In this document: positions 4,412 to 33,738 of the stretch, one piece after another
How positions within the stretch are numbered: position 1 is the stretch's first letter
Layout: each line of letters starts with the position of its first letter
DNA from: an uncultured Spirochaetaceae bacterium
Lineage (GTDB): Bacteria > Spirochaetota > Spirochaetia > DSM-27196 > PWMO01
Length of the DNA: 36,040 bases
Direction of reading: 5' to 3'
NCBI GenBank assembly: GCA_964345195.1
Contig: CAYFQV010000013.1
Location: forward strand, 1-36,040
Made by a program: the position numbers and the translations under genes
Notes under the pieces: model-generated
Told to the model about the DNA's origin: nothing
Databases searched by the model: none
The model's input: the letters and a program-made list of their open reading frames with translations, nothing else

Positions 4412-4638
4412 TCCTGTGAGCTGTACACGCTTGTATACTACATTCCGGGATCTGCGACTGCAAGGACGGAACATGAAAAACCTACAACTCGGAGTCAGCG
4501 AACTCCACAGCAGAGGTAGCATTAGCTGTCTCGCTCATGCGCCCGGGAAAGACGGTCGCGTGGCGGCGTGTTGCAACATGGACACCTCCACACCAAACAC
4601 GGAGCCCACCGATCAAAGACACATGAGGGGTGCAAACC

Positions 4639-8929: not shown

Positions 8930-9195
8930 TAGGCTCTCCCACTGCAGCTCTATGTGCGCAACTCACAACATTGTCGTAAGCATAAGGGCTACCCCTGCTT
9001 ACTTTCCATCCCCAGCGTTCAACAGGGGCAGCCACGAACCGTTCTACTTGACCTGCTGTCGAAGCCACCCCTGCTCACCGACAATACGGACGGAGGTTGA
9101 AAGCCAACTGCTTTCGGCGAGACAGTGTTCCAAAGTGAGTGAAGCCGCAGTCGACATGTAATCTCATAAAGGCTATAGTCGCCATGGAGGATCAC

Positions 9196-10665: not shown

Positions 10666-10783
10666 CGGAGAGTGAACGGCCTGACGGCTTGAATAGAATC
10701 AGCATGCTCTTGTAGCGGACAGTTCAGGAAAGACGATGGGCCTGTTTGACGCAGAAGAGCTAAGAAAAGGAGGCAGGACAGTA

Positions 10784-12250: not shown

Positions 12251-12254
12251 AACC

Positions 12255-12278
12255 GGAACGAACACCATGGTGCGTTCC
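12255..12278 (+). terminator. hairpin immediately after the sulfatase stop codon (weak terminator candidate)
   Basis: GGAACG-aa-CACCATGGTG-CGTTCC starts 5 nt after TAA 12248-12250. There is no clear U-tract after it. Confidence 0.3.
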
Positions 12279-12612
12279 GTGCTTAAATCAGCATGGTGGC
12301 CATTGCCGCTGTCCTCGGCGACAATTGGTTCTCATCATAAATACGACTAATGAGCGAACTGGTGCACCACGTCAGGCTTTCTGAGCCACAGACTGAGCGC
12401 AGACAGGTTCGGCAGCCCTCGTATTACTCCCTCAGATCGAGTGTTAGCACACGTGACTAATCCCTTCTCCTTCTCATATAGCTCAAAAATTCAGATCGAT
12501 AAGCGAAATAGTGCGCGTAGACGCGCTTTGCGACAGTTTGAGTACTTGATCTATGAAATCCATAGCGAGCAACTTGAACCACATAAAGGAGCACCTCGGG
12601 CAGACCGCCACG

Positions 12613-14126: not shown

Positions 14127-14963
14127 TCAGAGACCATTAGCAGCAGAACGAAATTCCGTCGGTGTGCAGCCCGCATGTTTCTTGAATGCTTTTGAAAAAT
14201 AGTTAGGGTTGTGATACCCTACAGCGTGACTAACTTCGGAGACGTGGAGATCGCTCTTACGGAGTAGTTCCCTAGCTTTCTCCATCCGTACCGAGGTGAG
14301 ATACTCAAAGATAGAGAAATCATTTTCATTACTGAAGACATGTGAGAGATAGTAGCCGCTCACGTTGAGCGCCGTCGCAACATCTGCCAACGAAATTCGT
14401 TCGGCGTAGTTGTCTCTGAGAAACGACATAGCCGCGTGCATAAGCCGTTTGCGACGCAGAGCTCGGGCCGGCGTCTCTTTGTTCGTTCCACTCGACGTCG
14501 CCGCTCGTAGCATCAACATCAAGGCCTCAAGCAGTCGACAGCGAACGAGAAGTTCATTCACCGCCCCTCCCGAACGTAGCTCGCCCCTGATTCTATCGAA
14601 CGTTCCCACAAGCTCCGCTTTTCTATAGCTACCCATGGATAGAAGCGTTTCATTGTTAACGTACTGAAAGAATTCTTTCTCTCGTGACCATTTGATAGAC
14701 ACGAAAAAGATTTGGAGTCCTTCTTCGGGGTCGAAAACATCCATATGAAGTGTTCTAGTCGGCATTACCAGCGTGTCACCCGGTTCACCATGATATATGC
14801 GATCGGATACTTGGAGATCCAGCTTGCCGCTAACGACGTGGAGTATCTCAAAAAACGCCGACTCGTGGACGAACTCACCCCATACGGGATCGAAAGCCTG
14901 GAGACCAATCTGATTCAGTTGGGGCATAGATTGGCCGATCTGTTCTATTAGCTGGTCACACAT
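14127..14963 (-). CDS. AraC family transcriptional regulator
   Basis: C-terminal AraC HTH (ADVATALNVSGYYLSHVF...SHAVGYHNPNYFSKAFKKHAGCTPTEFR) and an N-terminal cupin-like region. ATG 14963 preferred over TTG 14984. Confidence 0.85.
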   Translation of the reverse strand: MCDQLIEQIGQSMPQLNQIGLQAFDPVWGEFVHESAFFEILHVVSGKLDLQVSDRIYHGEPGDTLVMPTRTLHMDVFDPEEGLQIFFVSIKWSREKEFFQYVNNETLLSMGSYRKAELVGTFDRIRGELRSGGAVNELLVRCRLLEALMLMLRAATSSGTNKETPARALRRKRLMHAAMSFLRDNYAERISLADVATALNVSGYYLSHVFSNENDFSIFEYLTSVRMEKARELLRKSDLHVSEVSHAVGYHNPNYFSKAFKKHAGCTPTEFRSAANGL

Positions 14964-15065
14964 TTTTTCCACGAATAACTGCAATCTTCCGCCACACGGG
15001 TAATGTACTCGTGGAGAGTTAATAGAACAAACCTGTCGAGCGTCTCCTTAGTCGGAACAGTCTGC

Positions 15066-16907
15066 TTATCTCGACATCCTGCACCGGACAATAGACAGAG
15101 GCGGCACGGTAAGTCGTTCTTCATCTATGGATGCGTGAGCTGAACGGAGCGGAGATATTGGTTGCTCGCCGGCAAGCCCGGTGAGCTCGCACCCGTCGGT
15201 ATCAACACCTTCCAATTCGATCCTCGCCTCTTGCGACGGATGCCGGTTTACGAAGAAGAGCCACGTGGCGCTTTCACTCTTCAAGGCCAAGCCCTCAACC
15301 GTCTTTCCCGCTCCGAGCGTTGAAGTCTCTATTTCCAGAGCTACGAAACGTCCCGGAAGCGCAGGCCGGTAGAGCTTGAACACTTCCGCAACGCCGGTAA
15401 CCTTCACGTTGGCTCCCCGACGGTTTACGATACCCATACAGTTCACAAGGTTGTAAAAATGAGCTACTTCGAACGTCGGCGCTAACGCCGCGAACCGGTG
15501 GATCATCCCGGCGGCAAAGAGGGCGTGCAAGGTGAGTGGCGGCTCTTCGAAGTCGTGCCCGTCCCAGTGCGATGCCTGCAACCACCAGTTCCACTCGGCA
15601 ATGCCCACTTTCATGTTCACTCCGCGTTCTTGGCACCGGGCAATGAACGAGCGGGTAGAAGTTTCGAAGGTACGCAGTTGGTTAACCACCTGTTCCACTT
15701 GTTCGTAGGGATCCGCAATGCCCCCGTCGTACTCTCCGGCCGGCTCGGGGCGCACGCCTAGTCCCCCGTAGTTCTGAAACTGAATGAGATCCACCATGTC
15801 GGAGGCCTCCTGCAGGATAGCGTCACGCCACGGGGCCTCGCCGTCCGGCACGTCGAGATCCGCGCTCGACATGACAGCCACGATCCTACAGCTTGGATAA
15901 TTATGCTTGACTGCCGGTATGTAGCGTTTCAGGACATCTATGTACATCTGAGGCGTCATCTGCGCAAGCGTGGGGCTATACGGATGGTTTCCAATGTGCC
16001 AGTGAATAAGCGGAGGATCGATGCCCTGAGCGCGGAACCATTCAGCGCAGTACACCGCCCACGCGGCGGCTTCTTCCGGTGGCGACGTGGCGATATTGAG
16101 GGTAAGCGCCGGGGTGACCGCTTGTTCCAGACAAAGCTGGAGGTACTCGTCGGTCCCGAAATCGTAGTGCATGTACCAATCATGATGGAACGACGCATCG
16201 AGCATGTCGGGTCGCAGATGTACCGGGCCGGTGCCGTGTCGCCAGTTATAGGTCGTGGTGGCGATCCCTCCGGGGAAACGGAGAATCGGTATCTGCATTG
16301 TGGCAATCTCTCGAGAGATGTCGGCCGCTATGTTCGGCTGGCCGTACGGGCGGAGATGAATCTGATCGAACCAGAGCTCGCCACCACCCATGACATCGAT
16401 CTTCAGCCGGGCCTCGTCGTCATCTCGCGGAGCGTGAAGAGGAACGACATACCGCTTGAAGTACGGCGTGGCGATTTCGACTGATCCGGTGTCGTAAGGT
16501 TCGAGCTTTACGGCCAATGGCTTGAGCTCTACGGACAACGTTACGGGACCACGCCAGGCGCGTGCCCAAATCTCAAGCTCCAGATCCTCGCCTTCACGGA
16601 TCTGTATGCGATTCTGATGAAGCGCTGGACCGCGCGCCATGTTCGACGTCCGCACGAGCTGAGCTTCGGAGCCGCAAAGCCCAGCTTGAGGCGTCAACTC
16701 ATAGGCAATAGCCGCATGGCTCGCGCCGTACCACTCAGGAGCGATCCCAGTCATCCGGTGGGGAGGACCTACGAACTTAGGGTTGCGAAGCCGGTTGGAC
16801 AGCAGCCCATCCACTGTCGTGGCGCAGGTCTCGATATTCTGGCCCAAAATCATCGGAGATACTAAAGCTCCCGGCTTTTCCCCTACGGCTACTACTGCCT
16901 TCACCAT
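15066..16907 (-). CDS. GH51-like (clan GH-A) glycoside hydrolase with an N-terminal CBM-like domain; the acid/base position reads GNH
   Basis: LRFPGGIATTTYNWRHGTGP, HWHIGNHPYSP (GH51 has W.IGNE.DGP) and VGIAEWNWW (nucleophile motif EWN.W). Strong SD GGAGGGAGGAG. No signal peptide. Confidence 0.6.
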   Translation of the reverse strand: MVKAVVAVGEKPGALVSPMILGQNIETCATTVDGLLSNRLRNPKFVGPPHRMTGIAPEWYGASHAAIAYELTPQAGLCGSEAQLVRTSNMARGPALHQNRIQIREGEDLELEIWARAWRGPVTLSVELKPLAVKLEPYDTGSVEIATPYFKRYVVPLHAPRDDDEARLKIDVMGGGELWFDQIHLRPYGQPNIAADISREIATMQIPILRFPGGIATTTYNWRHGTGPVHLRPDMLDASFHHDWYMHYDFGTDEYLQLCLEQAVTPALTLNIATSPPEEAAAWAVYCAEWFRAQGIDPPLIHWHIGNHPYSPTLAQMTPQMYIDVLKRYIPAVKHNYPSCRIVAVMSSADLDVPDGEAPWRDAILQEASDMVDLIQFQNYGGLGVRPEPAGEYDGGIADPYEQVEQVVNQLRTFETSTRSFIARCQERGVNMKVGIAEWNWWLQASHWDGHDFEEPPLTLHALFAAGMIHRFAALAPTFEVAHFYNLVNCMGIVNRRGANVKVTGVAEVFKLYRPALPGRFVALEIETSTLGAGKTVEGLALKSESATWLFFVNRHPSQEARIELEGVDTDGCELTGLAGEQPISPLRSAHASIDEERLTVPPLSIVRCRMSR

Positions 16908-18241
16908 TTGGCTTCTCCTCCCTCCCCTTCACCCCACGCACGGTAGAGCAGGTTCACTGAACGGTCTACCAGTTGAAACCCCGCGACCGACGCAAAGCGC
17001 GTCCAGCGAATCGGCTCTCCGGAATAGCCGCCGCCCACGCGTGCGTATGGAGTGGGCAGATAGCCTTCCTGACCGTTGGCCAAACCGATAATCCCGCTAA
17101 TCGGGGCAGGACTTCGTCGTTTTATGTCGATGCCGTACTGGCTGTACAGCTCGAACGGCACAGCGCAGAACGCAAGATCTCCGATACGCAGCGCCTGAAG
17201 CGGGACACATTGAGATTTCTGCCCACCGAGTTGTTCCTGGAGACTCTTGATCCCGTAGGCAACAATAAAGTCCATTCCGGTCCGCTGCGAGACATGAGTC
17301 GCTTTCTCAAGCACCGAGTCGGCCCATTCGATCCGTTCGGGCTTCGGGAGTTCTATAGGAAGCTCAAGGTCCTCGCCGGCGACGCCAAGGGTGGCAGACT
17401 CATGGAACGGTACCTCAGTAAACAACCTCAGCGTCTCCCCAGAAACCTGGTGAGCAGTGCGCGACATGACAAGCTCCCTATCCGCGTTACCAAAGTGCTT
17501 TGTCAGCTGATCCTCTATGCTAATGTCGCCCTGGGCACCATTGAAATAGAGAACTACCGTAGACTGTCCAAGTGCCTCTCGGAGGAAGGTTCTCGCCATA
17601 CCGGGAAAGTCTGCAGAATAGAATGTTGATCCGTAAAATGTTGTGGGATGAGTAGTGTTGTTATAAAGTACGGCGAGAGGTTTATCCTCTAAGTCCACGG
17701 CGAACAGAACGACATGATCCGAATCATCAGGACCTTCAAGGCCCCGAAAATCCCTGCGCCTGGTGTCGCCATGCATAGTGTGTGATCCATCCTCCCAGCA
17801 ACAGCGGCGATTGTAGCCAATCCGCTGGCTACCCCGCCCCCAACCGAGGCGCGCGCGGCGAGTATTCGACGCAGCCTCGCGCCCGAGTCGCTCACAAAGC
17901 ACCTCAAGTCGGTCAAAGTACGCTGTGTCAACTGGTTTGTCAGGATGCGTTTGCATCGTCGAAGGCCCGGAGTGCATATGGGTCGCCGCAACGAGCACGT
18001 GGTTGGGATCGATCTCCGCACCGCGAGCTGCTGCTTGTCGCATACGCCAGGCCACTGCCATCTCCAATCCGACGAGGTCCAGACTGATTAGCAAAACCGT
18101 ACGCTCACCGTCATGGATGAGCATTGCGTTCGCCTCGCAGGGATCGCGAACATATTCGGCCTTCTTCGTATGTCCGGCCGCCTGAATGAAATTTCCTATC
18201 TCATGCGTGATATCTACAGAAGCAGCACCGACTCTAAGCAT
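16901..18241 (-). CDS. neutral/alkaline ceramidase N-terminal-domain-like zinc amidohydrolase (paralogue 1), cytoplasmic
   Basis: VAATHMHSGP (neutral ceramidases have THTHSGP) and NGAQGDIS (compare GDVSPN). Colinear with paralogue 28045..29364. SD GGGAG. 7-nt overlap ATGGTGA with the next gene. Confidence 0.6.
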   Translation of the reverse strand: MLRVGAASVDITHEIGNFIQAAGHTKKAEYVRDPCEANAMLIHDGERTVLLISLDLVGLEMAVAWRMRQAAARGAEIDPNHVLVAATHMHSGPSTMQTHPDKPVDTAYFDRLEVLCERLGREAASNTRRARLGWGRGSQRIGYNRRCCWEDGSHTMHGDTRRRDFRGLEGPDDSDHVVLFAVDLEDKPLAVLYNNTTHPTTFYGSTFYSADFPGMARTFLREALGQSTVVLYFNGAQGDISIEDQLTKHFGNADRELVMSRTAHQVSGETLRLFTEVPFHESATLGVAGEDLELPIELPKPERIEWADSVLEKATHVSQRTGMDFIVAYGIKSLQEQLGGQKSQCVPLQALRIGDLAFCAVPFELYSQYGIDIKRRSPAPISGIIGLANGQEGYLPTPYARVGGGYSGEPIRWTRFASVAGFQLVDRSVNLLYRAWGEGEGGEAKW

Positions 18242-18256: not shown

Positions 18257-18766
18257 CTACTGTTTTCTCTTGCGCAAGAGACGTGCGGGAACACCGGCTA
18301 CCACAGAATATGGCTGCACATCGTGCGTGACCACCGCACCCGCTGCGACTATACTACCCGTACCAATGCGAACACCTCCAATGATGACCGCATTTGCCCC
18401 GATCCACACATTGTCTTCTATCACAATTTTCTCTTGTTGCGCCGGTCCGTCTACGAAGGCTACCTCAGGATCTTCGTGCGTGTGCCGAACCGCGGCGAAC
18501 ACCGTGTGGGCGGCCACAGCACACTTGTTGCCGACTTCGAGTGGACCATAAAGAACACAGAACGGAGCGAAGTGTGTCATGCTTCCAATCGTTATACCGG
18601 GACCCACCTGAATGTGTACACCGACATTGAACAAGGTGTTGTCGCCGATCGACAGGCGCTCGGGATCGAGTATCGTGACTCCTGTAGCGAACTCAACATT
18701 ATCACCGATATGCTTTAGCCGATCGACACAATCCGGATACGTCACGATCCTGTTGGCAACTCCCAT
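18257..18766 (-). CDS. hexapeptide-repeat (left-handed beta-helix) acyl/acetyltransferase
   Basis: Repeated [LIV]-G-x4 hexapeptides and the C-terminal motif VWIGANAVIIGGVRIGTGSIVAAGAVVTHDVQPYSVVAGVPARLL, typical of maltose/galactoside O-acetyltransferase-like enzymes. Confidence 0.85.
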   Translation of the reverse strand: MGVANRIVTYPDCVDRLKHIGDNVEFATGVTILDPERLSIGDNTLFNVGVHIQVGPGITIGSMTHFAPFCVLYGPLEVGNKCAVAAHTVFAAVRHTHEDPEVAFVDGPAQQEKIVIEDNVWIGANAVIIGGVRIGTGSIVAAGAVVTHDVQPYSVVAGVPARLLRKRKQ

Positions 18767-23166: not shown

Positions 23167-25368
23167 ATGCTACAAACTACACCTGGCCGTTATCATGGTT
23201 TCGCAACTACCTCGCTAGGTTCTGAGGTGCAAGCCGGCTCCATCTGCACTTTCAGTGTCGTCTACAATGTCGGTGATTACGGAATCGACGATTCGGGAAG
23301 CATCAAGCTATGTTGGAGATTCGCCTCCGACATCGGTACTCCCCAATTTGGTGACCCAGACGCGCCGAACTTTCTTGCGATCTCAACCACCGCAGATTGT
23401 GAGCTCGAACCTCGTTTCGACATTAAGGGAAACACGCGACCCTGGGGCCGAACCGTGTATGTAAAGACCCAGAAAGGCTTCCTGTCACCTGGTGATACCG
23501 TTCGGTTTGAGTTCCGCAATCTTCGTATGCAAACTTTCGTAGAGCGAGACTTTCGGTTTCGCTTGTACGTCGACGACGTTGCGACCTACGTTTACAATGA
23601 AGTCGCGGTAGCTCCCGCGGCGGACATTGTACCCGGGCCGGCGCAACGCATGCGGCTTTATCTTCCATCTGTTGCCCAACCTGGAGACGCGGTAGAGCTC
23701 CGAATCGTTGCAGAAGACCGCTGGGCCAATCCCACCACGTTTAACCGCAGAATCCGTCTCCGCAGCCAAGGGGCGCTTACCGGGCTCCCCCAGGTGATAG
23801 ACCCTGTTGAACTATTGAGTTCATCCACGTCCGGTAGTTCGAGGCCGACTCCCCTCCGAGTAGACGAACTACGGGTCACGGAGGCAGGCGTCGTGAGGGT
23901 TTGGGCGACTTGGGATGCGGGCGATTCATCTGTCGAGTTTGAGTCTAATCCGCTCGTCTCCGTTTCCGAGGGGCAGGAGAAAAAGGTGTGGGCGGATATG
24001 CATGGTCAGTCCGGTGAGACCATTGGAACAGGATCGATAGAGGAGTATTTCCGCTTTGCTCGAGATCTCGCCTGTGTAGACGTCGCCGGCCACCAAGGCA
24101 ACGACTTCCAGATTACTCGGGACTTCTGGGCGAAACTTCAGGGTGTTACCGCCACATTCAACGAAGAGGAACGCTTCATCACATTTCCAGGATACGAGTG
24201 GTCGGGTAATACTGCAGTTGGCGGTGATCGAAACATCTATTTTCGCACGGAAGGGAATCACATCCGCCGGAGTTCTCACGCCTTGTGTCCCGACGTCTTG
24301 GATGCCGGTGACGACTGCACGAATGTCGGCGATCTTTTTGAAGAGCTTTCGGCGGAGGATTGTCTCGTCGTGCCGCACGTTGGAGGAAGATACGCAGACG
24401 TCCATCAGCACGCCCCGGAGCTCGAACGCTCTGTCGAGGTGCACTCTGCATGGGGGACTTTCGAGTGGATACTTCACGATGCCATCCGGGACGGACACAT
24501 CGTTGGAATTGTTGCGATGAGTGACGGCCATAAGGGTCGCCCAGGCGCGAGTCACCCTGGCCGTGGCAAGTTCGGTTCGTACGGTGGTTTGACATGCCTT
24601 TCCGTCGACGCACTCACTCGTGATGAGGTTTGGAACGCATTTCGGAATCGACATCACTACGCCACGACTGGAGCACGCACGGTGCTCTTTCTGGACGGAA
24701 CTGAGCTCAAGTCAGGCTACAGCCTTCGCATGGGTGACTACCTTCAGCTTGCAGCCGCGGATAAACTGCGTCTTTCTGCTCGCTACGTGGGAACCGGCCC
24801 TGTCTTGGCAGTCGACGTGTTCAACGGGCTTGACTTGGTTGAGCATCGACGTATCCCTGGTCATGGCGACCGGATCCTGGTGTCATGGTCGGGATCTCTT
24901 CGACGTGGTCGAGGCCGCCAGATTAACTGGTCAGGATCCTGCGAAGTTGAGGATGGTGAGATTTCTGACATTAAAGCCATTAACTTTCACAATCCTGAGA
25001 GTCCCCTTCGCCAAGATTCGCCGAGCCGCCTCTCTTGGAATTCCTTCACTACCGGTGGATGGAGTGGTTTTGTTGGGCGACTTTCCAACCCACTCTCGGG
25101 CAAGCTGCAAATTCGAACTGACCGGCTCGACTACACCATTGATCTTGAGTCGATAGATAAGGAAGAGATAGCAATACCCGCAGGCGGTGTTGATGCCCAA
25201 CTTCGAGTCATGAGACTACCATCAAAAAACGAATCGAAAGAAATTGATTTCGAGGCTGAATATGAACTCTACGACACGAACGCCATATACTTACGGATCA
25301 CTCAGGAAGACGGCACTATAACCTGGTCGAGCCCGATGTACATAGACCGGAAACAAAACCGTTCTTAA
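23167..25368 (+). CDS. large cytoplasmic hypothetical protein; the central region resembles DUF3604/PHP-type metal-dependent hydrolases (tentative)
   Basis: 733-aa ORF. Central motifs WADMHGQSGE, FPGYEWSGNTAVGGDRNIYF, VPHVGGR and SDGHKGRPG suggest a PHP/DUF3604-like metal site. The first ~270 aa look like a beta-sandwich. The family assignment is from memory only. Confidence 0.5.
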   Translation: MLQTTPGRYHGFATTSLGSEVQAGSICTFSVVYNVGDYGIDDSGSIKLCWRFASDIGTPQFGDPDAPNFLAISTTADCELEPRFDIKGNTRPWGRTVYVKTQKGFLSPGDTVRFEFRNLRMQTFVERDFRFRLYVDDVATYVYNEVAVAPAADIVPGPAQRMRLYLPSVAQPGDAVELRIVAEDRWANPTTFNRRIRLRSQGALTGLPQVIDPVELLSSSTSGSSRPTPLRVDELRVTEAGVVRVWATWDAGDSSVEFESNPLVSVSEGQEKKVWADMHGQSGETIGTGSIEEYFRFARDLACVDVAGHQGNDFQITRDFWAKLQGVTATFNEEERFITFPGYEWSGNTAVGGDRNIYFRTEGNHIRRSSHALCPDVLDAGDDCTNVGDLFEELSAEDCLVVPHVGGRYADVHQHAPELERSVEVHSAWGTFEWILHDAIRDGHIVGIVAMSDGHKGRPGASHPGRGKFGSYGGLTCLSVDALTRDEVWNAFRNRHHYATTGARTVLFLDGTELKSGYSLRMGDYLQLAAADKLRLSARYVGTGPVLAVDVFNGLDLVEHRRIPGHGDRILVSWSGSLRRGRGRQINWSGSCEVEDGEISDIKAINFHNPESPLRQDSPSRLSWNSFTTGGWSGFVGRLSNPLSGKLQIRTDRLDYTIDLESIDKEEIAIPAGGVDAQLRVMRLPSKNESKEIDFEAEYELYDTNAIYLRITQEDGTITWSSPMYIDRKQNRS

Positions 25369-25484: not shown

Positions 25485-26555
25485 TTACTGCCCGAAAGCT
25501 TGGATTGCTTCACGGTCTTCAAGGACACCGATTTCGAGCTCAATCTGCCTACGGCCGAATGCGGATAATACGTCAACCATATTTCGTGCGGCCGCGTTCT
25601 CGTAACCTATCGGTAATGTCGTAGCAGGTTCCATTCCCATGGCATAGTCCTGCGCTGCCGGACATAGCCAGGAGGTGAAATACGGTAGGTGGAGCTTCCG
25701 GTACTTCACGTACAACCCGAGTTCACGCTCCGGATTGATGATCGCGGCCGAAACCGTACCGTCCGACTGCTCAACTAATTCATGGAAGTAGCACCGCTCA
25801 GACGCACCGGGCACTGGGTCCGCGAGCATTAGCTCTGACATGGCTACCTTCGACTCAGGCTCCTCACGAGAGATGATGGACGACGACCGTGTCACCAATT
25901 GCGCCCCATTATTCACCAGAGGGTAACCTCCGTTGATATGATAAAGCAACATGAACGGAGTATCTGTCGGTGAGTCGTTCTCAACGACGTCAATGATGGT
26001 AAAGGAGTTTACCCCGGCCACTGCTCCGATCTCTCGTCGCAAAGTGAGACTCTCGCCGAACGCCATCGACTCGCGCATAAGCCCGGAAACGCTAATCTGG
26101 TAGACCCCGTTAGACCATCCAGTCCGAACGCCCATCTGCTCGGCGGTAATATTCGAGATTCTCCCATGCAACCCCTGATCTTGCCACCCGAGTGGATCGC
26201 CGCGATTCACCGACGATGGCGGCCCAACATTCGAAAGACCGCACGTGGTGAGGAGTCCTCCGAAGAACCCGCGCAACCAGCCAATTCCTCGTGATTCGTA
26301 GCGCGACGCGGCGATAACGCCGCTCTTGGAGAGATAACTCAGGGGAACACCGCGAAACGATAGGCGAGAAATGTCCATGCCCCGCCCCGGTAGCACCGTG
26401 AACTCGAGACCGCTGCCTGTCCGGACGTCCACTGCACTCGTCCCGGCAGCTTGCCCCTCTTCCATTGTATATCGAACCGCACCGGCGAGAGCAGACATAT
26501 TTCCGACACGAGATCGCAGATACCGCTCGTTCTCAGGGAAGACAAACTCCTTCAC
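25485..26555 (-). CDS. DUF4432 / aldose 1-epimerase (mutarotase)-like protein
   Basis: Galactose-mutarotase-like beta-rich sequence (LPGRGMDISRLSFRGVPLSY...GLHGRISN). Proposed GTG start at 26555, with GGGGGA 6 nt upstream and a GTGA overlap with the kinase stop. The alternative GTG 26579 gives a 28-nt overlap. Confidence 0.6.
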   Translation of the reverse strand: MKEFVFPENERYLRSRVGNMSALAGAVRYTMEEGQAAGTSAVDVRTGSGLEFTVLPGRGMDISRLSFRGVPLSYLSKSGVIAASRYESRGIGWLRGFFGGLLTTCGLSNVGPPSSVNRGDPLGWQDQGLHGRISNITAEQMGVRTGWSNGVYQISVSGLMRESMAFGESLTLRREIGAVAGVNSFTIIDVVENDSPTDTPFMLLYHINGGYPLVNNGAQLVTRSSSIISREEPESKVAMSELMLADPVPGASERCYFHELVEQSDGTVSAAIINPERELGLYVKYRKLHLPYFTSWLCPAAQDYAMGMEPATTLPIGYENAAARNMVDVLSAFGRRQIELEIGVLEDREAIQAFGQ

Positions 26556-28042
26556 GTAGAATCCCCCTGTGCTGGCCACATACGCAGTTCCAGATCTTGA
26601 TACGCCGCGAAAACCTGTTCGTAGTGTTGGTGCCGCTTTTCATCCGGCTCGAATCGCTGGTCGTCTTTAATCAGTGATGCAGCCTCGTCGACATTCCGAT
26701 AGATCCCTGAGCCGAGGCCCGCGAGCACGGCGGCTCCCACGGTGGCCGTTTCATGGGTTTGCGACACCCGTACCGGCAGCCCGGAAACGTCGGAAATCAC
26801 CTGACACCACGGCGCGCTTTGAGCGCCACCACCGTACATGCAGAGTCCCTCGGGCCGGTGCGATTCATCTGCAGAGAGAATGTTCGCATGGATCTGAAAT
26901 GCAATGCCCTCGAAGACCGCACGAACCACATCTTGTGCCTGGGTGTTGAGAGTCAATCCGACGAACGCTCCGGTCGAATTCTCTACCCAGCGCGGGCTCC
27001 CACCGCCGGCGAGGTGGGGATAGTAGAAGACCGAGCCGCTCCCCACACCGGAGCGGGCCGCGAGCGACGACAGCTCGGCGTACGCAGTCCCGGGGTAGAA
27101 CGTGTCGCGCAGCCAGCGCAATGACGCCCCGGCCGTCCCAAGAACTCCATCAAGAGTCCAGTTTCCGGCAAATAGTGACGGTGAGCAAGGAAGAGCAGAA
27201 GTTGGATCAGTGTCAGGACGGTCGAGTTGGAGCAAGATCTGGCACGCGGTACCCAACGACACACCTGCCTCTTTCTCGGCCATGCCTGCTCCTAGAGCCG
27301 CACAATGCTGGTCTTGCCCGCCCACGCAGACCATGGTTTCCGGCGTCAGACCGAGGTCGCCGGCCACCTGCTCGCGTAGTCGGCCCACTAGGGTACCCGC
27401 ACGCTGGATGTGCGGCAGCATGTCCGTTTCCACACCCGTGAACTCGAGCAGCTCGCTCGACCAGCGTCCATTAACCAGGTCATACATGAGGCTGCCTGAC
27501 GCCATGGTGCAATCGGTTGCGAAAACGCCGCAAAGCTTGTGAAGCACAAAGTCGTGTGCCATGAGGTACCTGGCCGTCTTCCGATGCACCTCCGGTCGGT
27601 GTGCCCGGAGCCACATCAGCTTCGGCAGGACGTAATATGCGTTGTTGCGCTTACCGGTAAGGCTTCGAACTCTCTCGTTCCCTATAGATTCAGAGATCAC
27701 CCGCGACTCCGCGGCCGCTCGTGTGTCGAGCCAACTCAAGGCATTGCACAAAGGATCTCCCGCCTGATCAACGGGAACGAAGGATATGCCTTGCGAACTG
27801 ACGCTGATCGCACGGACATTCGCCGGACTCACATCGCACTGGGATACAACCTCACGTGCCGTTCTCTGAACCAATTGCCACCATTGATCGGCGTCTTGTT
27901 CAACCTCGCCGCGCTCACCAGTCAGCAACGGATACTCATAGTAGCTGACTCCAAGAGTTCGTAACCCGGAAGTAAAAAGGATCGAACGACAGCCCGTAGT
28001 TCCCAGGTCAATTCCCAGGATGCACGCCTCGCTACCGCCCAT
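26552..28042 (-). CDS. FGGY-family carbohydrate kinase
   Basis: ILGIDLGTTGCRS (N-terminal FGGY motif) and YGGGAQSAPWCQVISDVSGLPV (C-terminal FGGY motif). Start placed at ATG 28042, 2 nt after the upstream TAA. Confidence 0.85.
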   Translation of the reverse strand: MGGSEACILGIDLGTTGCRSILFTSGLRTLGVSYYEYPLLTGERGEVEQDADQWWQLVQRTAREVVSQCDVSPANVRAISVSSQGISFVPVDQAGDPLCNALSWLDTRAAAESRVISESIGNERVRSLTGKRNNAYYVLPKLMWLRAHRPEVHRKTARYLMAHDFVLHKLCGVFATDCTMASGSLMYDLVNGRWSSELLEFTGVETDMLPHIQRAGTLVGRLREQVAGDLGLTPETMVCVGGQDQHCAALGAGMAEKEAGVSLGTACQILLQLDRPDTDPTSALPCSPSLFAGNWTLDGVLGTAGASLRWLRDTFYPGTAYAELSSLAARSGVGSGSVFYYPHLAGGGSPRWVENSTGAFVGLTLNTQAQDVVRAVFEGIAFQIHANILSADESHRPEGLCMYGGGAQSAPWCQVISDVSGLPVRVSQTHETATVGAAVLAGLGSGIYRNVDEAASLIKDDQRFEPDEKRHQHYEQVFAAYQDLELRMWPAQGDST

Positions 28043-28044
28043 TA

Positions 28045-29364
28045 TTACAATGCGTCCATCAGGCGGCCGGCGGTCGCAACCAGTTCCGCTCCAAAGTCCG
28101 GTGCCAGTAGCGATGTATCGACCTCGTAACCGCCTTCCCGCTGTGCCGCCGGCGTGCAGACATATCCGGGGAGGCAACCATTGGCAAGAGACACCACCAT
28201 AGTGGTCTGTCCGCCGCGCAGACTCTTGATCTCGGTTCCAAACTCAACGAATAACTCACCTGGCAGTCCTACCATCGTCACACCACCAACGGCGAGCACT
28301 TGGACTTCGGCCTCACGCTCATCCTCGTATAGCTCCAGAGCTCCGCCTTCCTTGAATACCTCAACATACCCGAGAAGGTCTTCGGCGCCGAGAAGCAACA
28401 CATTCGCATTCTGTCGCTCGATGTACGGCGCACCGGAATGTTCGAGCGCAGCATGCGCGGCCGCTGCCTTGCGGACAGCATCATACGCCTTCTCTTTGCT
28501 CGGAAGCTCTCGCAGTCTAATCGGCACCTCGACTGAGCGCGCACGCACGCGAAGCTCGCGACTGGTCGAGATTGACTCCAGGGCGGCGCCGGCGGCATCA
28601 GCGATCGTGTAACCGATTCGCCGAGCCTCTTCAAAACTCTGGTCCGTACGAAAATAACGCGTGCTCTGGTCTCCGGATGTACCCTGCAGAAACAATGTGA
28701 GCGCATGGGGATAACGTTGGGAAAGCCGCTCGCGTACGTAACCTGGATAGTCCGCTGAAACCGCTGTATTCTCCGCGTGAAGTAAGGTGGGATGCAGCGC
28801 GTAGTTGACCACAATGGCGCGACACACACCCTCGGAATCCACCACTTTCAAAACACCTACGGTCGGGTCCTGCGGCCCCTCGGGATCACGACGATTTCCG
28901 CCGACGCCCTTGTCAGAACCGCATATCTCGGTTCCCGCGCCGAACGACGCATCGAACATGCCTTTCTGTGCCTGTACAACGCTGTCCACCACACGCTCTC
29001 GGAGAAACGTCACGTATGCCTCGTCTTGCATTACTCCATTTCGGAGCGAATCAATATCGAGTCGACCCGAAGCCCATGGGCCGGAATGAGTGTGGGTGCA
29101 GCCGATCAATACATTTCGACGCGGAATACCCGTGAGTTGCTCAACTACTTCACGAACCGCGGTCACATGCTTCTTGGAAAAAAAGAGAAGATCGAGGGAC
29201 ACCATTGCTATACTAGAAACACCGTCACTGATGACAACTGCGGTCGAGAAAAGCGGATCATGCACCTCCGTATTGTGGCGTGGATGATGCGGATAGCCCG
29301 CCAATTCCATCCCCTGAGGAGGCGTAATCTCGGTTCTGCCGGCGCCCGCACGGATTCGACTCAT
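28045..29364 (-). CDS. neutral/alkaline ceramidase N-terminal-domain-like zinc amidohydrolase (paralogue 2), cytoplasmic
   Basis: IGCTHTHSGPW, NYALHPT, LQGTSGDQS and LANGCLPGYV. Colinear with 16901..18241. ATG 29364 overlaps the upstream TGA as ATGA. Confidence 0.6.
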   Translation of the reverse strand: MSRIRAGAGRTEITPPQGMELAGYPHHPRHNTEVHDPLFSTAVVISDGVSSIAMVSLDLLFFSKKHVTAVREVVEQLTGIPRRNVLIGCTHTHSGPWASGRLDIDSLRNGVMQDEAYVTFLRERVVDSVVQAQKGMFDASFGAGTEICGSDKGVGGNRRDPEGPQDPTVGVLKVVDSEGVCRAIVVNYALHPTLLHAENTAVSADYPGYVRERLSQRYPHALTLFLQGTSGDQSTRYFRTDQSFEEARRIGYTIADAAGAALESISTSRELRVRARSVEVPIRLRELPSKEKAYDAVRKAAAAHAALEHSGAPYIERQNANVLLLGAEDLLGYVEVFKEGGALELYEDEREAEVQVLAVGGVTMVGLPGELFVEFGTEIKSLRGGQTTMVVSLANGCLPGYVCTPAAQREGGYEVDTSLLAPDFGAELVATAGRLMDAL

Positions 29365-30752
29365 GAGTCGAATCTCTCCACGGATAGGCCCGGTACCCAG
29401 TCGCATGCGAGCGCGAGCACATCCGCACATTGCCGGTAGATGGCCGAACAATGATGAACGTATGGCCCTTCGATCAGGCGACGTTCCCAACGGGGCCAGT
29501 TATCGACTTCCAACCAGCCGTAAACCTCGCGGGTCGCCGGCCCGGGAACCATGCGTCCCTCCCCTACACCAAGTCGGTATTCACCTCTCGCGCCGTCAAA
29601 CCGACAAACCGTTACATCGCCGTCTTTGAGCTGGAACTGTAGCGACGTAGCCGGAAGCCCCTCGAGAATCCAGGGGGGGAGAATCGGAATAGGCCCGGTA
29701 TCCGGGCGCCTGAGGGAGACCGGTGCGGACGCGTGCCAGAGCAAAACTGCGTTATCGTTGTTCGGATGGCGGGAGGTGAACTCCGGAAAGAATGACGGCG
29801 TAGCATCAGAGGCGGCGGCTTCGATCATGACCGAGCTGAGCGCTCCGTGGATATCGGTCTCCGCCGAAATCGGAATGCGCTCTTCCGCAAGTGCGACGCC
29901 GAGCCCAAAGCCCTCTCCAACCGCATCCTGAATCGAGTTAAAACTCTGCATCGCAATTGCGTCTAGACCGTGTTGCTCCGCCATGTCGAGCATCTCGTCG
30001 CGGAGCGCAAGGCTGTTCAGAAGCCCATCGTCGGGTACAGAGTTAAGATCGATCAATTGCCCCAAGTCTCGGAGCTCAGCTCGATAGTCGGCGTCGTTTA
30101 CCGAACGTCGTTTTCGAAGTCTCTCAATCACTTCAACCATGTCGAACGGCATAACCTCGATTCCGAAGCGATTCAGCAGATCCGCTTCATCGATAATCGT
30201 CGACCAGAAGAAGTCTATGCGGCTGCCGAGTTGTCCGATCCGAGCCGTCTGCAACGCTTTCGCCACGCCGACTGAGTGTAGGAAGCTCTGAATGCCGTTT
30301 TCGAACGCCGCGTCGGAAACCCGACAATTCTCAAGGTATCGGTAGTTCACGGAAAGTGTGTGTAACACCTTGCTCGACGCGAAACATCCGCAGAGTGAAT
30401 CCCGGAGCCGGGACCCATCCTCTCTCGGTGCATCATCACGGGGCCCCCAGAGTAACGTTGGCACGTTCAGACGGCGAGCGACTACGCCGGCAACCCCTTC
30501 GGTTCCAAAATTGCAGTGGGGCAGAAACAAGGCATCAACGCTGTTGTCCCTGAAGTACTTGGCAACCCTCTCTGCATCCTCCTGTCGCTTGATTAAGCCG
30601 TCAGGGACGATGCCTTCAAGGTCCACCGTCTCGACACCCATCTCGGCCAGTTTCTTAAGCACGAGGTTCTTTTGTCGGACGGCTTCTGTATGCGAGAAGA
30701 CGAACTTACCCAGCGGGCATACAGCAAGTCGCACCGTCTTCTTTCTGAACAT
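29361..30752 (-). CDS. L-fucose/L-arabinose isomerase family protein (COG2407-like, short form)
   Basis: 463 aa. The N-terminal region (RLAVCPLGKFVFS...FLPHCNFGTEG...PTLLWGPRD...RLRDSLCG) is typical of FucI-related isomerases. SD GGGAG upstream. Confidence 0.7.
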   Translation of the reverse strand: MFRKKTVRLAVCPLGKFVFSHTEAVRQKNLVLKKLAEMGVETVDLEGIVPDGLIKRQEDAERVAKYFRDNSVDALFLPHCNFGTEGVAGVVARRLNVPTLLWGPRDDAPREDGSRLRDSLCGCFASSKVLHTLSVNYRYLENCRVSDAAFENGIQSFLHSVGVAKALQTARIGQLGSRIDFFWSTIIDEADLLNRFGIEVMPFDMVEVIERLRKRRSVNDADYRAELRDLGQLIDLNSVPDDGLLNSLALRDEMLDMAEQHGLDAIAMQSFNSIQDAVGEGFGLGVALAEERIPISAETDIHGALSSVMIEAAASDATPSFFPEFTSRHPNNDNAVLLWHASAPVSLRRPDTGPIPILPPWILEGLPATSLQFQLKDGDVTVCRFDGARGEYRLGVGEGRMVPGPATREVYGWLEVDNWPRWERRLIEGPYVHHCSAIYRQCADVLALACDWVPGLSVERFDS

Positions 30753-30791: not shown

Positions 30792-31292
30792 CTACTCGCC
30801 GATCAGACGAACCTGCAGTGTCCGCGCACGTGCCCGGACCTGATCCCAGTCCACAAAATAGATGAATCCAAACTCTCCCAAGTCCAGCTGCCCTTCGTCG
30901 AGAACGATACTCTCTGATCTCCCGAAAAGGCACGACCGGAGGTGGGCATCTGTGTTTAGACTGGTCCATTCGCCCTCTTCGCCCACGCTCATTGCGAACT
31001 CGATGTGCTTTGGGCCCGGATGCATGTATTGACCCTCAACCCGACAGGTCGGAAAGATCCTCTCCATTGCGTTACACAGATCCTGTTGCAGATACTCCAG
31101 ACCGAAATACGTCGTGTCGTGCGAACATTCTTGAAGCATCACGGAGCACGTCGTGTGGCGTGAATAGACCACGCAAATCCCATCAGTCATGCCCGATCGC
31201 CCACAGATCGCCTTCACTTGTTCAGTGACATCGTGAAACGTCGGGTGCAGGCCGACGGACTTTACCTCCACGGTCTCTCGATACGTCTTCAT
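30792..31292 (-). CDS. YjbQ/UPF0047 family protein (so-called secondary thiamine-phosphate synthase)
   Basis: Family pattern CVVYSRHTTCSVMLQE, NTDAHLRSCLFGRSESIVL and the C-terminal ...RLIGE, colinear with E. coli YjbQ as I recall it. ATGA overlap with the upstream gene. Confidence 0.8.
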   Translation of the reverse strand: MKTYRETVEVKSVGLHPTFHDVTEQVKAICGRSGMTDGICVVYSRHTTCSVMLQECSHDTTYFGLEYLQQDLCNAMERIFPTCRVEGQYMHPGPKHIEFAMSVGEEGEWTSLNTDAHLRSCLFGRSESIVLDEGQLDLGEFGFIYFVDWDQVRARARTLQVRLIGE

Positions 31293-32005
31293 GTTGGTAA
31301 CTCCTTGTTTCTATCGTCCCATGCCGCCCGGACAGCTCCAATCATGGCATCCACTGCGGCAGCCCGATCAGGAGCCTGAGTTATTCCGCTGGACGAACCA
31401 GTGGCATCGGCTCCGGATCGAATGGTCTCGTACACATCTTGCGCCGTCCTGATCCCGGCCCCTTGCAGGACGAGAATATTGGAATCAACGGCGCGGATGG
31501 CACCGTTCGCCGCTTCCACGTACACCCGATCGCTTGTGTGGCCGGTGCCAATGAGCTCGGTAGGCTCCGCCACAATGATATCCGGACCGAGCGTAGCGAT
31601 TGCCTTCGCTTCGCGAATGGAGTCGGCACACACGATCGTGAACAGCCCTACTTCACCCGCACGTCTCACAGTCGCGTTTAGCTCAGCGAGTGTGAGCGGG
31701 TGCTCAGCATGATTGAGCATGACCCCCGCGCATCCAAGCGCTCTCAGCGACTCAGGCAGGATCTTGGTGAGACCACGACCGGGGTACAGGGCGTCCATGT
31801 GCGGAGCACAGATGATTAAACGTTCAGTCGTCTCGACAACTAATCGTAAGTCGACGAAGGGTGCTGTAAAGAGCACATCCACATTGTACTTGATTGCGGC
31901 GGCGTCAGCGATTCGCGCGAGTTCGGCAACATCCTCGCCGTAGAGATAGGCCTTCGGCCCCACTTCAAAAAAAGGTGGGCGTGGTATCCGTGGGGCCTTA
32001 ACCAT
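31289..32005 (-). CDS. triose-phosphate isomerase family protein, archaeal-type paralogue
   Basis: Candidate catalytic Lys (EVGPKAY), LNHAEH (HSE-type His) and VAEPTELIGTG (catalytic Glu; archaeal TIMs have EPPELIGTG). ATG 32005 preferred over TTG 32035. No SD; the leader is A-rich. Confidence 0.75.
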   Translation of the reverse strand: MVKAPRIPRPPFFEVGPKAYLYGEDVAELARIADAAAIKYNVDVLFTAPFVDLRLVVETTERLIICAPHMDALYPGRGLTKILPESLRALGCAGVMLNHAEHPLTLAELNATVRRAGEVGLFTIVCADSIREAKAIATLGPDIIVAEPTELIGTGHTSDRVYVEAANGAIRAVDSNILVLQGAGIRTAQDVYETIRSGADATGSSSGITQAPDRAAAVDAMIGAVRAAWDDRNKELPT

Positions 32006-32036
32006 ATTTTTTTTCGTTTTTGATTGCACGAACAAG

Positions 32037-32358: not shown

Positions 32359-33135
32359 TTAACAACAATGAATCTGCAAGCCGAGACGCTCAATTCTATG
32401 TAGCGTCTCAGAGTCGGCGTCTGAATCCGTCACCAAGTGAGAGGCGGGAGAAAAGTTACCGAACTTATAGAAGCTCTCATGATCGATTTTCATAGAATCA
32501 GCCACGATGATCGTTCGATCGGAGCGGTCCACCATAATCCTGTTGATTTCCGCTTCCTCGGCGTGTAGCGTTGTTAAACCTTTCTCCGCGGAGATACCGT
32601 CGACCGATAGAATTGCACTATCAGCCTTGTACTGTAGGAGCTCCGAACCCGCGGTGTCCCCGAATGTAAATGCATGCTCCGAGTTCACGCTTCCTCCGAG
32701 TAGCAGAACACGAAATCCAGGCACCGCACTCAGCTCGACGGCAATTGGCAACGAGTTCGTGACAACGCTCAGATTCTTCCTCTTTTTCAATTCGAGGGCA
32801 GTGCGGTAGGCTGTACTCCCTGAGTTGATCATCAGCGTGCTGCCGTCGTTAACCAATTCGACCGCCAAGAGAGCGATCCGCCTCTTCTGCTCCCCTTGCT
32901 GTTCTGCTCGATGGCGGAACTCGAGACCAGTGATTGTAGGTGCCGCCCGGGTAGCCCCACCAGGTGTCCGCCTGCAGTATCCGTCGCGCTCCAGTATTGC
33001 AAGGTCGTTCCGAAGCGTGACTGGAGTCGCATGGAGCAGTTTTCCAAGTTCGGCTACGCGCACCTCTCCATCACGCCGCAAGAACTCCAGAATGGATCGC
33101 CGTCTACTGTCGATTTTCAGCTCATCCTTTGCCAT
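32359..33135 (-). CDS. DeoR/GlpR family transcriptional regulator
   Basis: N-terminal wHTH (RRRSILEFLRRDGEVRVAELGKLLHATPVTLRNDLAILERDG) and a C-terminal DeoR sugar-phosphate sensor domain. Confidence 0.9.
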   Translation of the reverse strand: MAKDELKIDSRRRSILEFLRRDGEVRVAELGKLLHATPVTLRNDLAILERDGYCRRTPGGATRAAPTITGLEFRHRAEQQGEQKRRIALLAVELVNDGSTLMINSGSTAYRTALELKKRKNLSVVTNSLPIAVELSAVPGFRVLLLGGSVNSEHAFTFGDTAGSELLQYKADSAILSVDGISAEKGLTTLHAEEAEINRIMVDRSDRTIIVADSMKIDHESFYKFGNFSPASHLVTDSDADSETLHRIERLGLQIHCC

Positions 33136-33144
33136 AGGTAACCC

Positions 33145-33738
33145 TCAAGAGTTCAACCGCTCTCCCACTGCACCGCCCGGATGGATAAGCGCAAACTCAT
33201 CCAGCCCAAATTGCGTGCCTTCCATGATGGCGACTTGCAGGGCGTCGAAGATCGCCACGGTAGCCATGAAACTGGCGGTGGCCATGACGTTGAACCGGTC
33301 ACTCTCCCGCTCGATCTTCAGCTTCAGGAGGATATCACTACTCCGAGCCAGAGGCGAATCCTCGTTCTCCGTAATCAGGATAACAGTTGACTTCTTCTTT
33401 TTGCATACCGACACAATTGGGATAAGCTCCGCCGTCCGTCCTCCTCGTGATGCCATCACCATTGTGTCACCTTCCTGGACGAATCCGAGTCCACCATGGG
33501 GAGCCTCTCCGGGAGGAATGAACTTGGCAGACTGTTCAACACAGCACAGCGAGTGCGCAAATTTCATTGCCGCGATTCCGGCATTTCCGCATCCAGTAGT
33601 GGCAATCCTGTTCGCGGAAGTCAGCGAATCCACCGCGCGTGCGAATGCGTGCTCGTCGAGATACCCTTGGATATCGGAGATCGCCTGGGATTCGATCAGA
33701 AGCGAGTGGCGTGCCATTTTCAACGATTCTTCGTTCAT
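33145..33738 (-). CDS. single-SIS-domain sugar-phosphate isomerase-like protein (KpsF/GutQ-type SIS without CBS domains)
   Basis: RIATTGCGNAGIAAMKFAHSL (KpsF has GxGKSG), PHGGLGFV (KpsF has HGDLG), ASRGGRTAE and the C-terminal HPGGAVGERL. It lies 9 nt upstream of the DeoR gene. SD AGAGG. Confidence 0.75.
   Translation of the reverse strand: MNEESLKMARHSLLIESQAISDIQGYLDEHAFARAVDSLTSANRIATTGCGNAGIAAMKFAHSLCCVEQSAKFIPPGEAPHGGLGFVQEGDTMVMASRGGRTAELIPIVSVCKKKKSTVILITENEDSPLARSSDILLKLKIERESDRFNVMATASFMATVAIFDALQVAIMEGTQFGLDEFALIHPGGAVGERLNS

Follow-up and report, generated by a model that had tools for sequence, protein, structure and literature searches.

Two short proteins with the neutral ceramidase fold, encoded among sugar-catabolism genes of an uncultured spirochaete, are candidate amidases of soluble sugar derivatives

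Introduction

Why would a protein with the fold of the neutral ceramidases be encoded, with no export signal, in the middle of a set of sugar-catabolism genes? The question is raised by a stretch of 36,040 nucleotides (nt) (positions 1 to 36,040 of contig CAYFQV010000013.1, assembly GCA_964345195.1; hereafter the window) from an uncultured Spirochaetaceae bacterium, the genome of which is metagenome-assembled (3.83 Mb in 410 contigs, 82% complete). Two genes of the window, here called Cer1 and Cer2, are concerned (lengths in amino acids, aa):

28045-29364, minus strand: Cer1, 439 aa, neutral-ceramidase catalytic-domain fold
16901-18241, minus strand: Cer2, 446 aa, paralogue of Cer1

A first-pass annotation of the window had proposed that both are cytoplasmic, that each is coupled to carbohydrate enzymes, and that their substrate is a soluble amide and not a lipid. 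In the literature, we found only lipid amidases among the characterised members of this fold. Our analysis leads us to regard it as rather probable that Cer1 and Cer2 are zinc-dependent hydrolases, consisting of the catalytic domain only, that cleave an amide bond in some small, soluble derivative of a sugar and not in ceramide.

Results

Family membership and fold of Cer1 and Cer2

Both open reading frames (ORFs) were found on the minus strand where the first-pass annotation had placed them, with the two motif pairs that it had quoted: GCTHTHSGP (the HTHSGP part at 29094-29077) and GTSGDQS (the GDQS part at 28674-28663) in Cer1, and AATHMHSGP (17983-17963) and GAQGDIS (the GDIS part at 17530-17519) in Cer2. 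The two proteins are 27% identical to each other (E 1e-24) and are the sole copies of the family in the source genome. The public gene call for Cer2 (P0272) is 407 aa long and starts 39 codons downstream of the 446-aa ORF start; the longer form is backed by homologues that align from residue 1 and by a ribosome-binding site (GGGAG, 15-nt spacer region). A 481-aa form of Cer1 starting at TTG 29490 was rejected: the extension is non-hydrophobic and runs into the preceding FucI-like gene, and homologues begin at ATG 29364.

Cer1 matches Pfam PF04734 (Ceramidase_alk), which represents the N-terminal catalytic domain, with 53.7 bits (E 1.8e-14), above the gathering cut-off of 32.1 bits, whereas Cer2 scores 25.7 bits (E 5.6e-06), under that cut-off. 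A comparison with this hidden Markov model (HMM), suggested as a check in the first pass, was thus significant for Cer1, and Cer2 was placed by family profiles and fold. A profile of the Cer2 family matches that of the Cer1 family with a probability of 100% (E 5.5e-51) and Pseudomonas aeruginosa neutral ceramidase (2ZWS) with E 8e-8. Because of these profile matches, together with the predicted fold, we place Cer2 in the same ceramidase superfamily as Cer1 despite its sub-threshold Pfam score. Sequence matches in the PDB were confined to neutral ceramidases, namely 2ZWS and 2ZXC from P. aeruginosa and 4WGK from human, and the Pfam search gave no Amidohydro match to either protein.

AlphaFold 2 models built on orthologue alignments had a pLDDT of 86.6 and a pTM of 0.90 for Cer1, and 89.8 and 0.91 for Cer2. 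The structural comparison suggested in the first pass gave a clear result: when searched against the PDB with Foldseek, both models matched only 2ZWS, 2ZXC and 4WGK (E 1e-22 to 1e-24, query template-modelling (TM) score 0.67-0.72), with best E values of 9e-25 for Cer1 and 1e-24 for Cer2, and the runners-up after the ceramidases had E above 1e-4 and TM below 0.2. When normalised to the target, the ceramidase chains, the TM score is only about 0.5 for both. P. aeruginosa ceramidase shares the catalytic-domain fold with a TM of 0.69-0.71 over the query, whereas its sequence identity to Cer1 and Cer2 is 15-19% and residues about 235-354 of Cer1 cannot be aligned to it by sequence. The ceramidase resemblance of both proteins is far above chance.

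Conservation of the active site

HMM alignment of the Cer1 family with human neutral ceramidase (ASAH2, 4WGK) pairs human H194, H196, R257, H303, E540, Y579 and Y591 with Cer1 H91, H93, R158, H191, E370, Y401 and Y413, so that seven active-site positions are shared. All of them are encoded on the minus strand:

29094-29086, minus strand: Cer1 H91 and H93, aligned catalytic-site residues
28893-28891, minus strand: Cer1 R158, aligned catalytic-site residue
28794-28792, minus strand: Cer1 H191, aligned catalytic-site residue
28674-28663, minus strand: Cer1 GDQS, GDVS-equivalent region
28257-28255, minus strand: Cer1 E370, aligned catalytic-site residue
28164-28162, minus strand: Cer1 Y401, aligned catalytic-site residue
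28128-28126, minus strand: Cer1 Y413, aligned catalytic-site residue
H88 and H90 within 17983-17963, minus strand: with R145, H198, E364, Y394 and Y406, the Cer2 equivalents of the Cer1 residues

In ASAH2, H196, R257, Y579 and Y591 are catalytic residues, and S354, likewise counted as critical, sits where the narrow hydrophobic pocket ends (PMC6952831). The P. aeruginosa equivalents, counted by chain position, are H97, H99, H204, E411, Y448 and Y460, and this H-x-H, His, Glu and pair of Tyr coincide with the Cer1 and Cer2 positions in HMM alignments. In neutral ceramidase, the zinc is bound by the other two His and the Glu together with a Tyr. The first-pass assignment of the H-x-H motif as the zinc/catalytic His pair, and of G-D-x-S as the GDVS-equivalent region, agrees with these alignments to 4WGK and 2ZWS, in which every catalytic residue lines up.

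The catalytic-site residues of Cer1 are invariant in 40 orthologues (alignment A1), and their Cer2 equivalents in 30 orthologues. When 135 diverse representatives of the short family were aligned with Cer1 and Cer2, H91, H93, R158 and H191 were conserved in 137/137 sequences, E370 in 134, Y401 in 135 and Y413 in 131. The Ser of G-D-x-S is less constant (96/137 across the family) and is variable within the Cer2 subfamily. Three further Arg near the catalytic motifs, R159, R236 and R239, are invariant in the Cer1 family (alignment A1). Since the catalytic positions are conserved across the family, Cer1 and Cer2 are, judging from their sequences, very probably active enzymes with ceramidase-type chemistry; a reading of the two as pseudoenzymes was ruled out, as their catalytic residues are all conserved.

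Domain architecture and predicted location

Neither protein has a C-terminal ceramidase domain (PF04734 was the sole Pfam match at E up to 1), and both chains stop about 25 residues past the second catalytic Tyr. By comparison, the P. aeruginosa chain has 630-646 residues and a C-terminal domain, whereas Cer1 and Cer2, at about 440 aa, end with the catalytic domain. Against the NCBIfam equivalog model for neutral ceramidases (NF041649), Cer1 scored 19.9 bits versus a cut-off of 1200, and Cer2 gave no match.

No signal peptide, hydrophobic N-terminus or transmembrane segment was found in Cer1 or Cer2. Both chains open directly with the first catalytic-domain strand, with no room upstream, and their alignments to mature ceramidase chains begin at residue 2-6. 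Pfam searches and inspection of the N-termini therefore uphold the earlier statement that signal peptide, transmembrane segment and C-terminal domain are missing from both. Signal-like N-termini occur in 0/120 members of the Cer1 family and in 38/119 Cer2 orthologues, window Cer2 not among them. The description of these proteins as cytoplasmic accordingly holds for both window copies, which are predicted to be soluble, and throughout the Cer1 family; it does not extend to all of the Cer2 subfamily.

The Cer1 operon

Cer1 belongs to a minus-strand gene set in the order SIS, DeoR, a 323-nt gap, TIM, YjbQ, FucI-like, Cer1, FGGY and DUF4432, the triose-phosphate isomerase (TIM) paralogue being the operon's first gene:

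33145-33738, minus strand: single-SIS-domain sugar-phosphate isomerase, KpsF/GutQ-like (Pfam SIS; NCBIfam kpsF 118 bits, sub-threshold)
32359-33135, minus strand: DeoR-family regulator (Pfam HTH_DeoR and DeoRC)
31289-32035, minus strand: archaeal-type TIM paralogue (PRK04302 163 bits versus a cut-off of 132; Pfam TIM)
30792-31292, minus strand: YjbQ/UPF0047 protein (Pfam and NCBIfam matches)
29361-30752, minus strand: FucI-like sugar isomerase, 463 aa (weak Pfam Fucose_iso_C match)
26552-28042, minus strand: FGGY-family sugar kinase, 496 aa (Pfam FGGY_N and FGGY_C)
25485-26555 or 26579, minus strand: DUF4432 aldose-1-epimerase-like protein (Pfam DUF4432 282 bits)

The FucI-like protein also matches the NCBIfam model for the sulfoquinovose isomerase SftI, with 82 bits, far under the cut-off. 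The FGGY kinase is nearest to xylulokinase (TIGR01312 XylB, 336 bits versus a cut-off of 380), and the DUF4432 protein matches PDB 3TY1, a 'hypothetical aldose 1-epimerase' (E 7.7e-24). The genes are tightly joined: the FucI-like stop and the Cer1 start share ATGA (29361-29364), the TAA of Cer1 is followed by 'ta' and then by the FGGY ATG at 28042 (2-nt spacing), and the DUF4432 start is probably GTG 26555, giving a GTGA overlap with the FGGY stop. Reading of the ATGA and TAA-ta-ATG junctions confirmed the translational coupling of Cer1 to the FucI-like and FGGY kinase genes that had been claimed for it. The GC profile gave no clear mark of foreign origin for the operon, and a promoter/terminator scan yielded no more sites than expected from shuffled sequence.

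Convergent with the Cer1 operon is a plus-strand gene (23167-25368) for a 733-aa protein with a weak DUF3604 match, a homologue of which (30% identity) immediately precedes the Cer gene in one related locus (L044).

Gene context of Cer1 relatives

We collected 81 non-redundant loci from named genomes and clustered their neighbouring ORFs de novo. They come mostly from Clostridia, with some spirochaetes, Actinomycetota and one Verrucomicrobiota, and they were gathered by Cer1-specific peptide patterns, mostly from related Clostridia, so that the counts given here are not independent events. Flanks of 3 kb or more on both sides were available for 53 loci. In 48 of these the Cer gene has an FGGY kinase no farther than 3 kb away, 42 encode a NagB-like protein of 320 aa, and 38 a NagA-like Amidohydro_1 protein; where the NagB-like protein occurs, the separate NagA-like deacetylase is usually present too. 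The DeoR, SIS, TIM and YjbQ module occurs within 6 kb in 13-17 of the 43 loci with at least that much flank.

Orthologues of the FucI-like gene adjoin Cer in L179, L001, L019, L038, L049 and L055. The core of the window operon, FucI-like isomerase, Cer and FGGY kinase, is retained in the closest relatives, some of which have an aminotransferase and an oxidoreductase in addition. The locus with 73% identity (L179) reads DeoR, FucI-like, Cer, FGGY, a 91-aa ORF, URO-D-like, Aminotran_3 and GFO_IDH_MocA; that with 71% (L089) reads a 329-aa protein, Cer, FGGY and DUF4432, then FA_desaturase and a class-III aminotransferase (Aminotran_3; L089:10085-12526); and that with 55% (L090) reads DeoR and SIS, then TIM, YjbQ, a ribose-type ATP-binding cassette (ABC) importer, Cer and FGGY. 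A DeoR-family regulator, as in the window, occurs in L089, L090 and L179. In L001 and L009, Cer comes immediately after the gene for a CUT2 monosaccharide-binding protein, and the pair of aminotransferase and oxidoreductase recurs in L055 (Verrucomicrobiota) and L016 (Clostridia).

In a maximum-likelihood tree, window Cer1 and its two closest metagenomic relatives form a fully supported clade outside the large Clostridia clade in which the NagA-like/NagB-like context dominates. Context labels cluster on this tree, with 16 changes versus 28.8 in shuffles.

Two protein families of these loci lack a Pfam match. The 320-aa protein, which is directly downstream of Cer in 58/81 loci (e.g., L029:10562-11524), has a remote likeness to glucosamine-6-phosphate deaminase (E 0.002) and is probably an undescribed NagB-like family. 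A Cys- and His-rich protein of 310 aa is found near the Cer-FGGY-NagA-like cluster in 34 loci (e.g., L037:12326-13258).

The Cer2 block and Cer2 relatives

Cer2 lies in a block that reads hexapeptide acetyltransferase, 15 nt, Cer2, a 7-nt overlap, GH51-like, AraC and SGSH_C sulfatase:

18257-18766, minus strand: hexapeptide-repeat acetyltransferase (Pfam Hexapep; NCBIfam sugar/maltose acetyltransferase models, all sub-threshold)
15066-16907, minus strand: GH51-like (alpha-L-arabinofuranosidase-like) protein, 613 aa (PDB 4ATW, E 2.7e-25)
14127-14984, minus strand: AraC regulator, downstream of the Cer2 block
12613-14073, minus strand: sulfatase with SGSH_C domain, downstream of the Cer2 block

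The GH51-like protein also matches 3S2C/3UG3 (E about 3e-25) and NCBIfam ArfA (58 bits). The acetyltransferase stop is separated from the Cer2 ATG by 15 nt, and the Cer2 stop and the GH51-like start share a 7-nt overlap, ATGGTGA (16901-16907), in keeping with the linkage proposed in the first pass; the identities that it gave to the neighbours of both genes, FucI-like, FGGY kinase (XylB-like), GH51-like and hexapeptide acetyltransferase, likewise proved correct.

Named relatives of Cer2 come from metagenome-assembled genomes of Planctomycetota and Lentisphaerae. Of 80 metagenome loci, 49 were usable for context, and the sole recurrent neighbour was a sulfatase, which is immediately adjacent to Cer2 in 12/49 loci and accounts for 27/429 neighbour ORFs around Cer2 homologues. 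Examples are L091 (URO-D-like, Cer2, sulfatase) and L092 (SGSH_C sulfatase, Cer2). Two to four Cer2-type paralogues per locus, interleaved with sulfatases, were seen in L115, L113 and L097, a pattern that suggests a family expansion like that of carbohydrate-active enzymes (CAZymes) in bacteria of the Planctomycetes-Verrucomicrobia-Chlamydiae (PVC) group.

Distribution of the short family

A search of 1.84 billion cluster representatives with Cer1 gave 15,500 matches at E <= 1e-3, a count that may take in canonical ceramidases, and 7,765 at E <= 1e-10. Among the best ~150 matches, 135/149 are 400-490 aa long. Their public names are 'neutral ceramidase', 'neutral/alkaline non-lysosomal ceramidase N-terminal domain-containing protein' and 'hypothetical protein', and we found no NCBIfam model, PDB entry or published description for the short form; one study (PMC4443539) mentions PF04734, but only for the 'partial domain' hits that it produces. 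The ceramidase-fold reading of the first pass is sound, but the family is not rare: it is large (thousands of members) and already auto-annotated as 'neutral ceramidase'.

The best named relatives of Cer1, at about 50% identity, are from Clostridia and spirochaetes, and cultured carriers of Cer include Anaerobacterium chartisolvens DSM 27016 and Anaerosacchariphilus hominis NSJ-68. There was no PF04734 match in 14 named control genomes. Among 40 relatives of the source genome, including 3 congeners (93-96% complete), there was no Cer1 orthologue, the best match being 41% identical. The Cer1 operon is therefore an accessory trait of patchy distribution, and possibly laterally acquired.

Discussion

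The conserved gene context strongly favours an amide on a soluble sugar over a lipid as the substrate of these proteins. Because the partners of Cer1 and its relatives are FGGY kinases, isomerases, a mutarotase-like protein, monosaccharide ABC importers, proteins of NagA-like and NagB-like type, and an aminotransferase paired with an oxidoreductase, the substrate is likely to be a small, polar, nitrogen-bearing and sugar-like compound of monosaccharide size, and the most economical account is that of a zinc amidase taking an acyl group off a nitrogen-bearing, sugar-like molecule. The first-pass proposal of a soluble, non-lipid amide substrate is thus supported by context, in particular by the FGGY kinases, the NagA/NagB-like proteins and the CUT2 binding proteins, but it is not proven. 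That the two proteins use zinc, that they act on an amide and what their substrate is like are all inferred. Going by the homologous neutral ceramidase, the Zn would be held by two His together with one Glu and one Tyr, and a Zn-bound water would attack the amide carbonyl, helped by the second His of H-x-H, the Arg and the second Tyr.

The candidate substrates are an N-acyl amino sugar, an N-acyl amino-polyol and an N-acyl glycosylamine. Cer1 would carry out one step of a DeoR-controlled catabolic operon, with its product passing by way of the FucI-like isomerase, the XylB-like kinase and the mutarotase-like, TIM, YjbQ and SIS proteins to central metabolism. N-deacetylation of an amino sugar had been suggested earlier. 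The amide idea behind that suggestion stands, but plain deacetylation at C2 is a poor fit for window Cer1, since its operon lacks a NagA-like or NagB-like protein and an aminotransferase. Simple C2 N-deacetylation is not our best guess for Cer1 because its operon has no deaminase or aminotransferase and because, in relatives, a NagA-like protein co-occurs with Cer; as the two co-occur and neither replaces the other, Cer probably cuts a different amide from the NagA-like enzyme. An amide at a position other than C2, or an N-acyl glycosylamine, would seem to fit better. In the latter case, the product would shed ammonia spontaneously and the sugar could enter the mutarotase-like, isomerase and kinase steps. 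Cer2, of the PVC-type, sulfatase-associated subfamily, probably removes or edits an N-acyl group on an imported sulfated-glycan fragment, a role suggested by its setting with an acetyltransferase, a GH51-like protein and a sulfatase.

Several observations weigh against a soluble-sugar amide as the substrate. We found no biochemical data on any member of the short family in the literature. The window's Cer1 operon contains no transporter and, as said, no deaminase or aminotransferase for a freed amino sugar. Elsewhere in the genome there is no NagA-like or NagB-like gene (at 82% completeness, this does not prove absence), and the class-III aminotransferases found elsewhere in it are only distant (27-30% identity). 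The FA_desaturase-family gene beside the L089 operon is odd for a sugar pathway and hints at a lipid-like moiety. Added to these are the non-independence of the loci on which the context counts are based and the signal-like N-termini of part of the Cer2 subfamily.

One may ask whether the bond is an amide at all. The Cer zinc site could act on an O-acetyl or other ester, a lactone, a carbamate or a phosphoester, or catalyse a reaction other than hydrolysis on a sugar, phosphorylated or not, of the same pathway, and this would accommodate the lack of an enzyme for a released amine in the Cer1 operon, the human ceramidase crystal with phosphate on the Zn (title of 4WGK), the extra invariant R159, R236 and R239 of the Cer1 family and the position of Cer2 next to a hexapeptide acetyltransferase of O-acetyltransferase-like type. 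We nevertheless consider it unlikely, as the full ceramidase catalytic set, with both Tyr and the Arg, is kept, which makes amide chemistry the simplest account, and NagA-like, NagB-like and Aminotran_3 proteins recur in related loci. Far less probable still is that the proteins are true cytoplasmic ceramidases or lipid N-acyl amidases acting on sphingolipid-like or other N-acyl lipids taken up from the surroundings, with the FGGY kinase and its partners degrading the amino-alcohol backbone. Cer1 and Cer2 have neither an export signal nor the C-terminal domain, the neutral-ceramidase equivalog score is 19.9 versus a cut-off of 1200, the carriers are mostly Clostridia and spirochaetes, and the operons of relatives hold monosaccharide ABC importers, aldose-ketose isomerases, and mutarotase-like, NagA-like and NagB-like proteins. 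What speaks for lipids is that the only characterised relatives are ceramidases, that an FA_desaturase-family gene and a class-III aminotransferase lie together in L089, and that the window encodes a GH123-family protein. GH123 enzymes act on glycosphingolipid glycans.

A third alternative concerns Cer2 only, which might be an N-deacetylase or de-N-acylase of sulfated oligo- or polysaccharide chains, that is, a CAZyme of polysaccharide-utilisation loci, with a substrate larger than a monosaccharide-sized metabolite. The recurrence of sulfatases as sole neighbours (adjacent in 12/49 loci, and in L091 and L092), the multiple paralogues in L115, L113 and L097, and the signal-like N-termini of 38/119 orthologues are all consistent with such a role, as is the coupling of window Cer2 to a GH51-like gene among sulfatases and a GH123 gene. 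On the other hand, window Cer2 has no export signal, and the GH51-like protein and the acetyltransferase too appear to be cytoplasmic, which would make the substrate an imported fragment of ABC-transportable size, and the context apart from sulfatases is variable; we therefore regard action on such chains as somewhat unlikely, and prefer a small soluble amide for Cer2 as well as for Cer1.

Comparison with known systems places this assignment in perspective. The gene context of Cer1 and Cer2 in sugar catabolism is unlike that of P. aeruginosa ceramidase. Human ASAH2 is an ectoenzyme that is glycosylated, anchored to the membrane and equipped with a substrate pocket that is narrow and hydrophobic (PMC6952831); unlike it, the window proteins are predicted to be soluble and cytoplasmic, and they are without its C-terminal domain. 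A functional analogy may exist with NagA-type deacetylases (Amidohydro_1), as metal-dependent cytoplasmic sugar amidases in a pathway of kinase, deacylase and deaminase, although the NagA-type fold is unrelated to that of Cer1 and Cer2 and the NagA-like protein is encoded by a separate neighbour gene in relatives. The Cer1 operon shares its isomerase-kinase logic with the FucI-FucK, AraA-AraB, XylA-XylB and TIM-like tetritol pathways; unlike these, it has no aldolase or epimerase gene, and its isomerase and kinase score under the equivalog cut-offs. We know of no ceramidase-fold hydrolase in any of these pathways.

It is possible, although we hold this more tentatively than the assignment of Cer1 and Cer2 as soluble-sugar amidases, that these genes mark a widespread, undescribed cytoplasmic pathway of anaerobes in which an amide-linked, monosaccharide-sized sugar (a non-C2 N-acyl amino sugar or amino-polyol, or an N-acyl glycosylamine) is imported, de-acylated by the ceramidase-fold zinc enzyme, and isomerised and phosphorylated by FucI-like and FGGY enzymes dedicated to it. 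If true, this would add a new reaction class to the ceramidase fold and a new nutrient route. The interest of the short proteins is that a catalytic-domain-only branch has kept the full active site and is wired into sugar catabolism. The identity of the substrate would name a function for thousands of genes now automatically called 'neutral ceramidase', reveal a nutrient of gut, rumen, digester and sediment anaerobes, and show how an active site that binds lipids was adapted to a polar ligand.

Other features of the window

Elsewhere in the window there is a sugar ABC importer, along with three further sulfatases and a GH123-family protein that is accompanied by an APH-family kinase. Three consecutive sulfatase genes occupy 9139-14073; in two, the C-terminal domain of the product is SGSH_C (sulfamidase-type), and because of these three genes and their SGSH_C domains the region resembles a sulfated-glycan utilisation locus. 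A further group consists of an AraC regulator, an APH-family kinase and the GH123-family protein:

3551-4522, minus strand: AraC regulator
4630-5742, plus strand: APH-family kinase, 370 aa
5942-7654, minus strand: GH123-family protein (Pfam GH123_cat 366 bits)

Taken together, these three genes look like a module that releases and phosphorylates N-acetylgalactosamine (GalNAc).

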